Shown here: piece after piece, positions 12,740 to 24,798 of the stretch | Layout: the number at the start of each line of letters is the position of its first letter | How positions within the stretch are numbered: position 1 is the stretch's first letter | Assembly (NCBI GenBank): GCA_046497275.1 | Contig: JAWOFX010000080.1 | Coordinates: 45,562 to 77,561, forward strand | Length of the DNA: 32,000 nt | DNA from: Promethearchaeia archaeon | Lineage (GTDB): Archaea; Asgardarchaeota; Lokiarchaeia; Sigyniarchaeales; SOKP01 | Reading direction: 5' to 3' | Notes under the pieces: model-generated | Told to the model about the DNA's origin: nothing | Seen by the model: the letters and a program-made list of their open reading frames with translations, nothing else | Database searches by the model: none | Translations under genes and position numbers: made by a program

Positions 12740-13170
12740 AAAAGGGTATTATTCCTCCCAGATACCTGATAAATGAATTGGTACAGTAAATCCAGATCCT
12801 GAACACATTTTATCAGATTAGTAGAATTTTGAGCATGATGATTTTAAATAATTTAAATTTCAACTGATTTTTCTTATTAATTTGAAATTTTTCATTCCAA
12901 AACCTTCGCAAGGCAGTCCTCTTATAGCTAATATTTTTCCATAAGAATCATCCGTTTGGATTGAATTATTTTTTAGATAAGCAACATATCAAAATAAAAG
13001 GGAATTAGGGACATAATATATGCTCATCCAGAGGGCTCTCCGCTGTTAGGTTGATTCAATGTGATAACTAAGAAAATGGTTATAAAGGTAGCTATAGCTG
13101 AAAGTATTATCAGGACTAGTGCTAATCTTTTTTTCCCAATTTTCAACCTTTTAGTTGAAATCGCAATCAC
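12740..13170 (-). pseudogene. Probable remnant of an N-terminally membrane-anchored or secreted protein gene
   Basis: 48-aa ORF at 13024-13170 (basic N-terminus plus TM segment LALVLIILSAIATFITIFLVITL), followed by short broken coding-like fragments. The left boundary is approximate. Confidence 0.35.
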
Positions 13171-13280
13171 CAATCTTTTTATTATTTATTCTTATTATTA
13201 TTTTATTCACTAATATTAATCATTAGAATATTAATTTAACTATGGAATTTACTTTCACGGCTCTGGCTCTTAGTAAAAAA

Positions 13281-20427: not shown

Positions 20428-21762
20428 TTGGAACTGTCGATAATTAAAGATAAGACGTTTTATATTGAGACTTATGGATGTGCAGCAAATAAATTCGATT
20501 CATATATTATAATTGATCTTTTACAGAAGGCAGGTTATAAGCAAGCTAATTTTGAATCTGCAGAATATATTATAATCAATACTTGTGGCGTAAAAGAACA
20601 AACCGAAAATAAGATCAGAGCGCGGCTAAGAAAATTATCAGATTTGAAATATAATAATCCTAAAAAGAAACTCATCATTGCTGGATGTTTACCATTTATT
20701 TCTTCAAATTATATGAAAAAAATTAAAGAACTTATACCAAATTATTCCGCTATTATCGGATTAAATTCAATTTTTAAAATAGTAGATGTATTCGAAAAAC
20801 TGCAAAATGATGAGGAAAATCTAATTTTAATTACGAATCAAAAGCATGATAAAGCTATTTATATGGTAGATTATACTCCAAAGAAGATCACTGGTATCGT
20901 TCCTATTTCAGAAGGATGCATAGGGTCATGCACTTACTGCTGTGTAAAAAACGCACGTGGAAGATTAACATCCTACTCTCCTGATAATATCATAAAAAAT
21001 GTGAAACATCAATTAGAGCAAGGTATCAAGCAAATATATCTCACCTCACAAGATTGTAGCACCTATAAATTTAATGGAATTGAATTAAGTGAAATTATAA
21101 GAAGAATAAATAATCTTCACCATGAGTTTTTCCTAAGAGTAGGCATGCTTAATCCAAGTTTTATAATTGACAATTTAAATCAGATAAAAGAAATTCTTAA
21201 TTATCCAAAGACTTATCAATTTCTACATATTCCCATTCAGTCGGCGAGTACTAAAATACTTAAGAAAATGAATCGTCCCTATACCCTCTCGGATATTATT
21301 GGGAAAATAACTGAATTAAGAACAGAATTCCCCTATCTTACTCTTTCTACAGATATTATCTGTGGGTTTCCAGGGGAAACTGAATATGATTTTTATAAAA
21401 CCCTCAATTTTATCAAATGGCTCCAACCAGAGATCCTAAATATTTCTCAATTTACACCCCGTCCAGGAACGAAAGCAAAAAAGATGGAGCAATTAAAAAG
21501 TCAAATTATAAAGGAGAGATCAACCCGATTATCTAATATTTTTAGAAATAGTTTAGATTTTATTAATGAAAAATGGACAGGATGGAGAGGTAAAATGTTA
21601 ACACTCCATAAAGGGGGAGAAAAAAACCAGGTTTTTGGGAGAAATTTTGCTTATAAAAATGTGTTTGTTGGTAATTATTCAGGGAATTATGGGGAATTCA
21701 TTGAGGCGGAAGTGTATAAGGTTGATGGGTTTAATTTATACGCAAAAAAGATAGAAAAATAG
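20428..21762 (+). CDS. mtaB: tRNA t6A37 methylthiotransferase (archaeal MtaB/CDKAL1-like radical SAM)
   Basis: YIETYGCAAN, INTCGVK, IAGC, CIGSCTYC, HIPIQS, DIICGFPGET and a TRAM-like C-terminus. Confidence 0.88.
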   Translation: MELSIIKDKTFYIETYGCAANKFDSYIIIDLLQKAGYKQANFESAEYIIINTCGVKEQTENKIRARLRKLSDLKYNNPKKKLIIAGCLPFISSNYMKKIKELIPNYSAIIGLNSIFKIVDVFEKLQNDEENLILITNQKHDKAIYMVDYTPKKITGIVPISEGCIGSCTYCCVKNARGRLTSYSPDNIIKNVKHQLEQGIKQIYLTSQDCSTYKFNGIELSEIIRRINNLHHEFFLRVGMLNPSFIIDNLNQIKEILNYPKTYQFLHIPIQSASTKILKKMNRPYTLSDIIGKITELRTEFPYLTLSTDIICGFPGETEYDFYKTLNFIKWLQPEILNISQFTPRPGTKAKKMEQLKSQIIKERSTRLSNIFRNSLDFINEKWTGWRGKMLTLHKGGEKNQVFGRNFAYKNVFVGNYSGNYGEFIEAEVYKVDGFNLYAKKIEK

Positions 21763-21769
21763 AAAATTT

Positions 21770-21840
21770 GTTGGTTGTACCCGCGCAGGGCAGTCATATC
21801 CAATCTATAGTTTTTATTAGATATTTCATCCTAAACCAAC
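21770..21840 (-). promoter_or_regulatory. Candidate eukaryote-like SECIS element for vhuU
   Basis: Minus strand reads GTTGGTT-TAGG-ATGA-A-ATATCTAAT-AAAAACTATAG-ATTGGATAT-GAC-...-AACCAAC: AUGA/GA core, 9-bp upper helix with one G-U, A-rich apical loop, and a complementary lower helix. Folded by eye. Confidence 0.65.
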
Positions 21841-21978
21841 GTTTAGATTTCGTGAGTAAATCTCGTCTCCCTCTTCATTAACAAAAGTGATATGGGCGGC
21901 GCATGATAGTCAACAATCATAACAGCGAACTATCATTTCTAAGAGATTTACTAACCCTTCATCAATTTCTTCACTCAT
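21826..21978 (-). CDS. vhuU: Selenoprotein VhuU, the [NiFeSe] hydrogenase C-terminal peptide (50 aa; UGA codon 23 = Sec)
   Basis: Not in the track. MSEEIDEGLVNLLEMIVRCYDC(TGA 21910-21912)LSCAAHITFVNEEGDEIYSRNLNVGLG*. Matches the RxYDP-C/U-xxCxxH L2 motif, which the upstream large subunit lacks. Confidence 0.93.
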
Positions 21979-22044: not shown

Positions 22045-22932
22045 TTATTTTAGATTATATTTTTCTAAGAGATCATTAGCTCGAGCTCGATGGTACTTCA
22101 TTCCAATATCATCTGGACTAATTCCAAAAGATAATGCTAATAATTCCGTAACATATAGAATTGGAATATTATATTCCTCGTCGAATAATTTCTTAAGATT
22201 TCTCTGATTGGTGTCCATTTGTTGGAAACAAGCAGGACAATTGATAACAAAACATTCGGCACCTGCCTTTAAAGCACTATCAAATTTATTTTTTAAGATT
22301 TGCATCGATGGTTCTTCTTCAGCATTTCCGACTGCATTGCCACAACAAAGCACTTCTTCCTCATAATCTACTGGAGTCGCGCCGGTAAGTTTTACAATCT
22401 CTCTTAATTTTACTGGTTCCATTGGATCATCAGTTTGCAGGATTTCTGAAGGTCTATTATAATGGCACCCTGTATGACATGCAACCTTAAGACCGGATAA
22501 ATCATTGACTACATTTTCTTTTATTTTATCGGGGTTAATATCATAGAGAACTTCCACAAAATGTTTTACATCTATAGTACCTTTGAATTCTTTATCAATT
22601 GTTTTTAAAATTTCATTAACTTTTTCCCTTACCTTTTCATCATGCTTTAATTCATGATTTACGCATTTAAGAGTTTGAAAACATCCATTGCATAATGAAA
22701 TAATGTTTTTCTCTTCATTCTCTCCGATAATTAGATTATTGGCACCCATCGCTAACCAGCTTGTATGATCAACTTGCTTAAAACCAGTAGGATCTGGGCA
22801 GCAACCAAAAGGGCCTTCAGATGTCTTTATTCCAAGAATATTAAACACTTTTCTAGCAGAAGCTTCTATAAATGGAATTCTATTTCCAATCACACATCCT
22901 TCGAATAATTTGTATTCCTCTACTTTTGCCAT
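22045..22932 (-). CDS. hdrB: Heterodisulfide reductase subunit B
   Basis: FEGCVIG, GCCPDPTG, CNGC, HTGCHY, CCGN, CPAC. Confidence 0.93.
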   Translation of the reverse strand: MAKVEEYKLFEGCVIGNRIPFIEASARKVFNILGIKTSEGPFGCCPDPTGFKQVDHTSWLAMGANNLIIGENEEKNIISLCNGCFQTLKCVNHELKHDEKVREKVNEILKTIDKEFKGTIDVKHFVEVLYDINPDKIKENVVNDLSGLKVACHTGCHYNRPSEILQTDDPMEPVKLREIVKLTGATPVDYEEEVLCCGNAVGNAEEEPSMQILKNKFDSALKAGAECFVINCPACFQQMDTNQRNLKKLFDEEYNIPILYVTELLALSFGISPDDIGMKYHRARANDLLEKYNLK

Positions 22933-22935
22933 TTC

Positions 22936-23454
22936 TTATTCCTCTTTATTTTGTTGTAAAATCACATTTAATTTAGATTTATTGAAAATTTTTTGAATCT
23001 CCTCAATATTAGGAGCTTCGATCTTGGGTAGTCCCAAATCATCTCTTCTTCTTTCTATAGCAGATTGCATAGGTATTGCTTTTCCATTTTCATAAATAGT
23101 AGTAGCTTGTTGAGTATAGTATTCAGGACCCTCCCCTCTTTTAACACTCATATTTTTTAATACTGTAAAAATTTCTGTTAATTCAATGTTTTGCGGACAT
23201 ACTTCATCACAAGTATCACATATAGTACAGCCCCAGAGATAAAATGAATCTTCTGAATCTAAAATACTTGGTTGAATGCCCAAAAAAGATTTTAAAATGA
23301 TATCTCTTGGGTCATATCTCCCGGGAGCGACTTTTGCGACGGGACAATTATCTGTGCAGCGATTGCACTGATAACAATACTTTAACGTATCATGAATATG
23401 AGCATCCATAATTAACTTTCTAAATTCATAATCAACACTTACCATAATTCTCAC
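22936..23454 (-). CDS. hdrC: Heterodisulfide reductase subunit C
   Basis: CYQCNRCTDNCP and CTICDTCDEVCP. Confidence 0.93.
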   Translation of the reverse strand: MRIMVSVDYEFRKLIMDAHIHDTLKYCYQCNRCTDNCPVAKVAPGRYDPRDIILKSFLGIQPSILDSEDSFYLWGCTICDTCDEVCPQNIELTEIFTVLKNMSVKRGEGPEYYTQQATTIYENGKAIPMQSAIERRRDDLGLPKIEAPNIEEIQKIFNKSKLNVILQQNKEE

Positions 23455-23493: not shown

Positions 23494-24798
23494 TTATTTA
23501 ATCCATGGATCTGGTAAATTTAATCCTTCTAATGCTTTATCTTCAAAGACTTGTTTGGCTGTATGCATCAGTGATTTCTCAATTCCTGCGATATTATGAT
23601 TCGTGGCAACTAACAGATTCAGTTTCTTGCACATGCCTTCAGCATCCGACCAGATATGATACAAGAGTACGCCTCGTGGAGCTTCTGTGACACCTACCCC
23701 ATTTCCTTCTCTTGGTTCCACATCTAAGGTTTTACAATCGGGATTCACGATGTCGGGATCTTCAAGGAGAATTTTAACATTTTCAATTGCTTCCACGGTT
23801 TCTATTAATCGCGCCCAATGATATGCAAATGTATGATGAGAAATTTGTCCAACTTTATCTCGAAATTGCTGTAAAGCATCTTGTGCTAATGGTGTTGCCA
23901 TCTTATCGGCGGCATTAATCATTGCCAAAGTATTTGCTCGATAAATTCCTTCCGGATATCCAGCGGGCTTATAATACATGTGTGTCGCGTAGGAATGTTC
24001 TGGAATGTGTTCGCCTAAGGCATCAAGATAATTCTGTACTTTATAGTCCGTTTTCTCTCCTTCTGGAGAAACAATGCGAATATCACCTTCGTAAATATCA
24101 TGAACACCCCCTTTAGTCATCCCTAAATAATATGTAGGAACGACACCGACATTAGCAACAACATCCCAATAATCTTCGACAACTTTTAGCCCAATCTCAA
24201 CAGTTTTCTTGGTAAATTCAATTTGTTCATCGACTTGTTTTAAGAATCTGTCTCGCGCATCTTCATCCATTGGTTTTTTCATCCCACCAACGATTGCGGA
24301 AATTGGATGGACTGACTTCCCTCCAATTTCTTGACAGAGCTTTTGTCCGAAATCCATCATCTTTAATGCCATTTTGCCGACATCGGGCATTTTATTGATC
24401 ACGTGAACAACATTACGTTTTGCGGGATCGGCAAACGGTCCTAACAAGAAATCTGGTGCTGCCAATGCGTAGAAATGTAAGATATGTGAAGAATACTGCT
24501 TTGCATTCATTATTAATTGTCGCAATTTATAGGCAGGTTCCGGAATCTCTACTCCCCATGCATCCTCAACTGCTTTTGTTGGAGTAATATGATGGGGAAT
24601 TGGACAAATCCCGCATATTCTTGGTGTGATTCGCGGTACATGTTCGCAATATCGCCCTTCCACAAATTTTTCAAAAAATCGAGTGGATGTGATATTGAAT
24701 TGAACATCCTTAACCTTTCCACCATCATCAATTACTATATGTAAGTCGCCATGGCCTTCTAATCGAGTGACAGGCTCAACCTTAATTTCTTTAACCAT
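23494..24798 (-). CDS. vhuA: Group 3c-type hydrogenase large subunit lacking the C-terminal Ni-binding segment (VhuA)
   Basis: EPVTRLEGHG, RICGICP (L1), EAPRG; ends LPDPWIK at a true TAA with no DPCxxC. Confidence 0.93.
   Translation of the reverse strand: MVKEIKVEPVTRLEGHGDLHIVIDDGGKVKDVQFNITSTRFFEKFVEGRYCEHVPRITPRICGICPIPHHITPTKAVEDAWGVEIPEPAYKLRQLIMNAKQYSSHILHFYALAAPDFLLGPFADPAKRNVVHVINKMPDVGKMALKMMDFGQKLCQEIGGKSVHPISAIVGGMKKPMDEDARDRFLKQVDEQIEFTKKTVEIGLKVVEDYWDVVANVGVVPTYYLGMTKGGVHDIYEGDIRIVSPEGEKTDYKVQNYLDALGEHIPEHSYATHMYYKPAGYPEGIYRANTLAMINAADKMATPLAQDALQQFRDKVGQISHHTFAYHWARLIETVEAIENVKILLEDPDIVNPDCKTLDVEPREGNGVGVTEAPRGVLLYHIWSDAEGMCKKLNLLVATNHNIAGIEKSLMHTAKQVFEDKALEGLNLPDPWIK

Follow-up and report, generated by a model that had tools for sequence, protein, structure and literature searches.

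A lokiSECIS-type element with the vhuU stop codon in its core in a genome of Lokiarchaeia

The vhuU mRNA encoded in the 32,000-nt stretch of DNA analyzed here (hereafter: the window) carries a SECIS element that is real and strongly conserved, and the UGA stop codon of vhuU lies in its core. The element is the lokiSECIS of Mariotti et al. (2016, Mol Biol Evol, PMC4989117) or, in the terms of Huang, Xiao & Zhang (2024, ISME J, PMC11227280), the Asgard type I eSECIS-like element. All sequence features that the original prediction had listed for 21770-21840 are found on the minus strand base for base, and its assignment of a eukaryote-like SECIS of the lokiarchaeal type is correct and concerns an element that was already known. 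We put at about 0.93 the probability of the full reading, i.e. that the vhuU mRNA contains a SECIS of the published eukaryote-like type of Loki- and other Asgard archaea, folded as a three-way junction, and that the proposed recode-then-terminate mechanism (see below) operates on it.

Asgard SECIS elements have been proposed to bridge the archaeal and the eukaryotic mode of selenocysteine decoding, and supported examples help to define the ancestral design. Since both the overlap of the stop codon with the core and the distance rule discussed below have been in print since 2016 (PMC4989117), the finding is right without being new, and the element from the window adds no new principle. Its added value is comparative, and lies in the fixed 84-nt spacing from the Sec codon to the core, in the dual coding by five codons, in the tolerated insertion of one base, and in the three-armed shape.

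The vhuU gene and its neighborhood

The source genome is metagenome-assembled (3.85 Mb, GC content 30%). The gene that ends within the element (Table 1) has two in-frame UGAs, at codons 23 and 51, and encodes a short peptide with the motif RCYDC-U-LSCAAH around residue 23. In alignments this peptide matches the very end of MvhA/VhuA chains (large subunits of F420-non-reducing hydrogenases) on the C-terminal side, with the Sec residue opposite the Cys of DPCLSCATH, and it can also be aligned with the 27-aa VhuU chain of a solved structure. Upstream are found vhuG (Pfam Oxidored_q6), vhuA, which is devoid of the C-terminal Ni-binding motif supplied by vhuU, and the hdrC-like and hdrB-like genes. 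The C-terminal alignment together with this set of upstream genes identifies the gene as vhuU, and its product is predicted to be a separately encoded C-terminal piece of the large subunit of a [NiFeSe] hydrogenase.

Table 1. Features of the SECIS element, the vhuU locus and the tRNA-Sec genes (positions on the window unless a contig is named; MFE, minimum free energy)
Feature	Position	Strand	Basis or remark
vhuA, [NiFe(Se)] hydrogenase large subunit	23494-24798	minus	Pfam NiFeSe_Hases
hdrC-like ferredoxin gene	22936-23454	minus	Pfam Fer4 families; between vhuA and vhuU
hdrB-like gene	22045-22932	minus	Pfam CCG; between vhuA and vhuU
vhuU CDS, 50 aa and stop	21978-21826	minus	translation
Sec UGA, vhuU residue 23	21912-21910	minus	position kept in all orthologues
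Stop UGA, vhuU codon 51	21828-21826	minus	translation
Whole SECIS element	21770-21840	minus	sequence and fold
Helix I 5' arm, GUUGGUU	21840-21834	minus	MFE fold; within last sense codons Val-Gly-Leu
5' internal loop UAGG, between helix I and AUGA core	21833-21830	minus	sequence, MFE fold
AUGA core, UGA part = vhuU stop codon	21829-21826	minus	sequence, translation
Single additional A, putatively bulged, separating AUGA from helix II	21825	minus	sequence
Helix II 5' arm, AUAUCUAAU	21824-21816	minus	9 bp including one G.U
Apical loop, AAAAACUAUAG, 11 nt	21815-21805	minus	sequence, fold
Helix II 3' arm, AUUGGAUAU	21804-21796	minus	pairs with AUAUCUAAU
3' core GA and C (GAC)	21795-21793	minus	sequence
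Third arm, GC-rich hairpin UGCCC / loop UGCGC / GGGUA	21792-21778	minus	MFE fold
Helix I 3' arm, AACCAAC	21776-21770	minus	MFE fold, covariation
U-rich tract 3' of element	21741-21769	minus	sequence
tRNA-Sec copies (loci L040, L041), at contig ends	C33:11-129 and C165:63-181		Rfam model

The hdrC-like and hdrB-like genes set vhuU about 1.65 kb apart from vhuA in the window. In most related loci vhuU directly follows vhuA and the distance from the end of vhuA to the SECIS is about 165 nt, and the order vhuA-hdrC-hdrB-vhuU recurs in only nine of the loci that were fetched (L043, L044, L045, L047, L048, L063, L075, L078 and L103). A second copy of vhuU, equipped with its own SECIS, is located on another contig (C44) of the same genome. 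The U-rich tract that follows the element in the window is likely an archaeal oligo-U termination region, and a convergent gene on the plus strand ends at 21762.

The genome encodes the Sec machinery. The Rfam tRNA-Sec model identified two copies of tRNA-Sec above the Rfam cut-off (49.4 bits each), one of them 2 kb from a gene for SepSecS (381 bits) and the other 3 kb from a gene for an EFSec-like GTPase (233.9 bits against the bacterial selB model). The tRNA-Sec matches are 119 nt long against the 91 positions of the model, which suggests an intron or an extension. Both copies were missed by aragorn, which reported 19 tRNAs and no tRNA-Sec for the whole genome. Two proteins of the L7Ae family are encoded as well; as for SBP2, no instance in Asgard archaea is reported in the text of Mariotti et al. 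(2016, PMC4989117) or by Huang et al. (2024, PMC11227280).

The 281-nt context of the element folds with an additional 8-bp hairpin, AUGAUAGU/ACUAUCAU (21903-21936, minus strand), the 3' arm of which contains the Sec UGA, and this was considered as a candidate recoding hairpin. Its sixth 5'-arm position is changed to U or C in at least 12 orthologues with no compensation on the other side, and the candidate was rejected for this reason; the hairpin probably arises as a consequence of conservation at the protein level.

Predicted structure of the element

RNAfold applied to 21760-21850 returned one and the same three-helix fold as the MFE structure and as the centroid (-18.1 kcal/mol). The original prediction of a helix, an A-rich loop and a closing stem around the AUGA/GA core is recovered in this fold, together with a third, GC-rich arm on the 3' side. 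The z-score is -2.17 and 7 of 200 shuffled sequences folded equally well, so this energy lends modest support by itself and thermodynamics alone would not settle the fold. When 281 nt are folded, the MFE structure retains helix II and the GC hairpin and has other pairings in place of helix I.

Conservation and covariation

A DNA search of 40 relatives detected the vhuU region in 31 of them, in addition to the second copy in the source genome, and 37 orthologous or paralogous regions were aligned with ordinary MAFFT (alignment A1). RNAalifold predicted from A1 the identical three helices, with double-sided changes in 16 of the 18 pairs, i.e. the orthologous vhuU regions do covary. Counting of pairs over the 37 sequences showed 94.1% of cells to be paired and revealed 61 double-change cells, compared with 13.8 in shuffled alignments; none of the 500 shuffles reached the real alignment in any measure, and a control with the pairing partners slid along the alignment gave at most 52% paired cells.

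A covariance model built from A1 (R1) was used to collect 83 vhuU elements of Lokiarchaeia (Promethearchaeota) from loci fetched via vhuA. In the resulting alignment, which was fitted to R1 and therefore leans toward the model, 98.0% of cells are paired. Compensatory changes occur in all three helices. In helix I a U-A pair is replaced by A-U in 17 sequences, and C-G and U-A alternate (45 and 28 sequences of the 83-element alignment, respectively). Helix II exhibits double-sided changes in 8/8 modelled pairs, with 97.9-98.9% of cells paired, and the CCC/GGG pairs of the third arm are retained in 95-98% of cells with few double changes. The unpaired positions are conserved as follows: AUGA is present in 80/83 elements (UUGA in 2/83), the apical loop is 11 nt long in 66/83, starts with AAAAA in 72/83 and ends with AG in 62/83, and the 3' core dinucleotide is GA in 45/83 and AA in 38/83, with the next A in 82/83 and C in 78/83. 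It is these comparative data, not the folding energy, that constitute the evidence beyond chance for the element.

The same data discriminate between the two closing helices that the original prediction had offered. GUUGGUU/AACCAAC is borne out by both the fold and the covariation. The other candidate, TAGG/CCTG, pairs in 83% of cells, mostly by virtue of invariant letters; its A-U pair breaks in 14 of the 37 sequences of A1 and its CC belongs to the conserved CCC/GGG hairpin, and we rejected it on account of this failing pair and this competition. The TGCCC/GGGTA hairpin, which had been suspected as a competing fold, turned out to be a conserved part of the structure, namely its third arm.

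The stop codon inside the core

The idea that a single UGA serves both as the terminator of vhuU and as part of the SECIS core, at a distance of 84 nt from the Sec UGA, applies far beyond the window: in 75 of the 83 vhuU genes the UGA of the core terminates the reading frame at a spacing of exactly 84 nt from the Sec UGA. The remaining eight comprise four members of a sister family (f2; loci L025, L028, L029 and L030) with UAA stops located 8-26 nt upstream of AUGA, three genomes in which a 2-nt insertion creates a UAG just before AUGA, and one copy with a premature stop. Because of these exceptions the overlap is regarded as strongly preferred, not obligatory. According to the text of Mariotti et al. 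(2016, PMC4989117), the AUGA of VhuU.1 also works as a UGA stop codon, so the dual use of this codon had been stated before.

The last five codons of vhuU, GUU GGU UUA GGA UGA, double as the 5' arm of helix I, the internal loop and the core, and their synonymous third positions are either frozen or changed only with compensation in the 3' arm. Thus, GGU to GGC is accompanied by AACC to AGCC, and GUU to GUA by AAC to UAC. The UAGG of the internal loop is nearly invariant, even at the synonymous third bases of its Leu and Gly codons; 81/83 genes have A at the end of the Gly codon (GGA), since this base is the first A of AUGA.

Of the 83 vhuU elements, 24 have the extra A after AUGA, and in the other 59 the stem follows without a spacer. 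This A always occurs together with a 3' GA and never with a 3' AA (0/38), and among the 21 aligned non-vhuU elements (see below) none has it. We regard it as a lineage-specific insertion of one base in a run of A, which indicates some tolerance in the kink-turn region; the inserted base may either bulge out or displace the non-canonical pairs. Owing to the extra A, an in-frame UAA (21819-21817, minus strand) appears three codons past UGA-51, inside the 5' arm of helix II, and readthrough of UGA-51 in the vhuU of the window would append only U-N-I.

Relationship to known SECIS elements

Mariotti et al. (2016, PMC4989117) define lokiSECIS by an AUGA before a 9-bp stem, a GA after the stem (AA in VhuU), and an 11-nt loop, the first five bases of which prefer A and the last of which is an ultraconserved G mostly preceded by A; they also call the stem shorter than that of eukaryotic SECIS. 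The element from the window agrees with the lokiSECIS of VhuU.1, as presented there, in the gene family, the position, the 9-bp stem, the 11-nt loop that opens with five A and closes with (A)G, the purine-A after the stem and the stop codon in AUGA. The differences from that description are the single A that separates AUGA from the stem, the dinucleotide GA following the stem (the paper gives AA for VhuU), and the hdrC-like and hdrB-like genes that part vhuU from vhuA. With the lokiSECIS features matched apart from the intervening A, the structure covarying and the Sec machinery present in the genome, the assignment to the lokiarchaeal type stands.

For the Asgard type I eSECIS-like elements, Huang et al. 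(2024, PMC11227280) reported that UGA stops often overlap AUGA, and described frhA-specific pairs of the lower stem, [U/C]GG_C[C/U][A/G], which are UGG/CCA in the element studied here. The latter also conforms to the frhA/vhuU elements of that work (PMC11227280) in the core GA_[G/A]A, in the upper stem (within 7-15 bp) and in the apical loop (within 8-20 nt). Their model has an internal loop on the 3' strand from the core to the lower stem, in contrast to the conserved hairpin that we find at this place. The sequence files of that study contain 74 VhuU sequences ending in NVGLG, and the exact VhuU peptide of the window is absent from these files.

The similarity to eukaryotic SECIS (type 1; Rfam SECIS_1) is apparent at the level of sequence only, and the upper helix of 9 bp, the overlap with the CDS and the third hairpin on the 3' strand set the element apart from them. 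An Rfam scan of the window reported no family at the gathering threshold, and around the element, with E-values up to 10, no SECIS family but only chance matches to Ref84, snoR17, SNORA66 and SNORD93. The lack of an Rfam SECIS match agrees with the experience of the authors of lokiSECIS themselves, who found that these elements are missed by the existing SECIS tools.

Methanogen SECIS elements with a kink-turn-like GAA/A motif (Peiter et al. 2025, PMC11881835) resemble the element in being 3'-UTR structures near the stop codon and in having a short stem composed only of GC pairs; they differ from it in an asymmetric GAA_A bulge, absent here, that is flanked by a GC-rich lower stem and an upper stem of three GC pairs. 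The GC hairpin was considered on its own as a SECIS of the methanogen type and rejected: it lacks the GAA_A bulge, and the essential second A is replaced by C (GAC). AUGA and GAC/AAC likewise occur in the vhuD SECIS of Methanococcales.

The third arm

The GC hairpin is present in all 83 vhuU elements sampled, and the GC in its loop is conserved in 77-79 of 83. To this set we added 21 non-vhuU SECIS elements of the Loki type (nine from the source genome and twelve from relatives), aligned to R1. Although their helix sequences are unrelated, they retain the full set of three helices, with 91.1% of cells paired in this model-fitted alignment and a covariation of 0.73 against 0.19 in shuffles. Helix I shows double changes in 7/7 pairs, and the GC hairpin, of variable length, is found in most of the 21, with its pairs as aligned by the covariance model kept in 81% of cells. 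A scan of the source genome with a simple motif (AUGA, 9-bp stem, A-rich loop, GA) yielded about ten elements with a GC hairpin within a few bases downstream. Each SECIS of the Loki type detected in the source genome (loci L125, L126, L127, L138 and L150-L152 besides the vhuU element of the window) has such a hairpin, with a conserved GC in its loop, immediately behind the 3' GA; a lower helix closes most of these elements, several of which fold as three-way junctions on their own.

The topology is that of a canonical helix, a loop, a second helix opening with G.A/A.G pairs, and a third helix that interrupts the non-bulged strand. The same topology characterizes the k-junction of TPP riboswitches (Wang, Daldrop, Huang & Lilley 2014, PMC4005666), a similarity that covers the secondary structure only and is accompanied by covariation; the loop of our element (UAGGAU) is longer than that of the k-junction (PMC4005666), and an extra A follows the A of AUGA. 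The text of Mariotti et al. (2016, PMC4989117) mentions neither helix I nor the GC hairpin, i.e. the three-way junction, nor does the third hairpin appear in what Huang et al. (2024, PMC11227280) write; both statements refer to the running text. A literature search returned no paper that ties SECIS to a three-way junction in the k-junction sense. We tentatively suggest that SECIS elements of the Loki type may be three-way k-junctions and not simple kink-turn hairpins, a reading of the modelled secondary structure that we hold to be possible though less probable than its opposite. The third arm could be a required contact for the archaeal SECIS-binding factor, and searches for such a protein should allow for the three-armed shape. 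A more speculative view takes this arm for what is left of the upper stem, composed of GC pairs only, of methanogen SECIS elements; if this were true, the Loki element would be a literal structural intermediate.

Recoding, termination and alternative explanations

The covarying three-way structure, with its kink-turn-like core, starts 72 nt after the Sec codon. When the ribosome is at UGA-23, the structure would thus lie at least 72 nt downstream and be intact, and it would direct EFSec and Sec-tRNA(Sec) to this codon, either directly or via a kink-turn-binding protein. About 28 codons later the ribosome would have to unwind helix I and the core in order to place UGA-51 in the A site, and with the SECIS melted the codon would be read as a stop. 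We infer here the formation of the kink-turn, the binding partner and the logic by which melting means termination, and the last of these has the same inferential standing in the literature. The text of Mariotti et al. (2016, PMC4989117) contains the corresponding proposal, a requirement for a minimal distance that spares the UGAs proximal to the SECIS.

It could be argued that the SECIS is real and that the overlap plays no discriminating role, the stop codon being in the core merely as a consequence of a compact 3' region and an occasional recoding of UGA-51 being harmless. We consider this unlikely, even if a number of observations speak for it. The UAA at 21819-21817 limits the readthrough to three residues, and the C-terminal tail beyond CxxH is probably removed by cleavage, by analogy with the maturation of [NiFe] hydrogenases (the 27-aa VhuU chain of the solved structure stops just after the His of CxxH); together, the probable removal of the tail and the backup UAA would make the recoding of UGA-51 inconsequential. 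In addition, the elements of the sister family f2 with UAA upstream of AUGA and the three genomes with an adjacent UAG demonstrate that the overlap is dispensable. On the other hand, the elements without the extra A have no nearby in-frame backup stop, and the overlap with its exact spacing of 84 nt is held in 75/83 genes over many genera, which suggests selection on the arrangement. The observation that HdrA, located far upstream of a shared SECIS, never ends in UGA, made in the text of Mariotti et al. (2016, PMC4989117), also fits the distance rule.

Explanations that dispense with selenocysteine altogether fare much worse. A generic 3'-end element, i.e. a transcription terminator or a set of mRNA-stabilising hairpins, might be suspected from the position at the end of a transcript, from the U-rich tracts that follow and from the superficially terminator-like GC hairpin, but a scan for bacterial-type terminators called no site, and the conserved AUGA, GA, AAAAA and loop G are not features of terminators. 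Moreover, for five of the ten hairpin-bearing pattern matches in the source genome the upstream gene was assigned, and these five plainly follow UGA-containing ORFs (two vhuU, two vhuD-like and one small membrane ORF, see below); across 154 genomes of the order, each UGA-containing relative of the membrane protein has the motif downstream. This explanation is therefore highly improbable in our estimation. Equally little credit can be given to a kink-turn RNA with another role, such as a translational operator bound by L7Ae or a C/D-box-like sRNA. The AUGA/GA core is indeed kink-turn-like, the genome encodes the two L7Ae-family proteins, and there is a weak Rfam match to the C/D-box family SNORD93 (15.1 bits, E-value 7.5); yet this score is far under the gathering score of 60 bits, the element has neither C (RUGAUGA) nor D (CUGA) boxes nor a guide region, and it resides within an mRNA, overlapping a stop codon in a conserved frame. 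The SECIS that is first used for recoding and then melted for termination thus remains the preferred reading.

Other SECIS elements in the window and in the genome

A better SECIS elsewhere on the transcript would have been an argument against the prediction. R1, run over the whole window with the filters off, detected only the vhuU element and one further element (12881-12973, minus strand; 43.1 bits, E-value 2e-7), all other matches scoring at most 14.8 bits. This second lokiSECIS is reported 24 nt after a 66-codon ORF (12976-13173, minus strand) encoding a basic N terminus, one transmembrane helix, a Gly/Ser-rich linker, the motif GEPSG-U-AY and a hydrophobic tail. The ORF has no Pfam match, a homologue search with it returned only its own truncated 48-aa form, and the family is absent from the seven selenoprotein families of Huang et al. 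(2024, PMC11227280). In a genus-mate, both the UGA and the SECIS are retained in an orthologue, and weaker relatives occur in three other genera of the same family, with U-A-C, U-P-C or U-V-C followed in each case by a lokiSECIS. We propose this ORF and its relatives as a candidate new family of small membrane selenoproteins with a motif of the U-x-C type.

In the same genome, R1 also matches after vhuD-like and other UGA-containing ORFs. A pair of lokiSECIS-like elements, C185:8705 and C185:9275 (L151), is located on one contig 570 nt apart, and the core UGA of each is in frame with a short upstream ORF that ends with ...KK-UGA.
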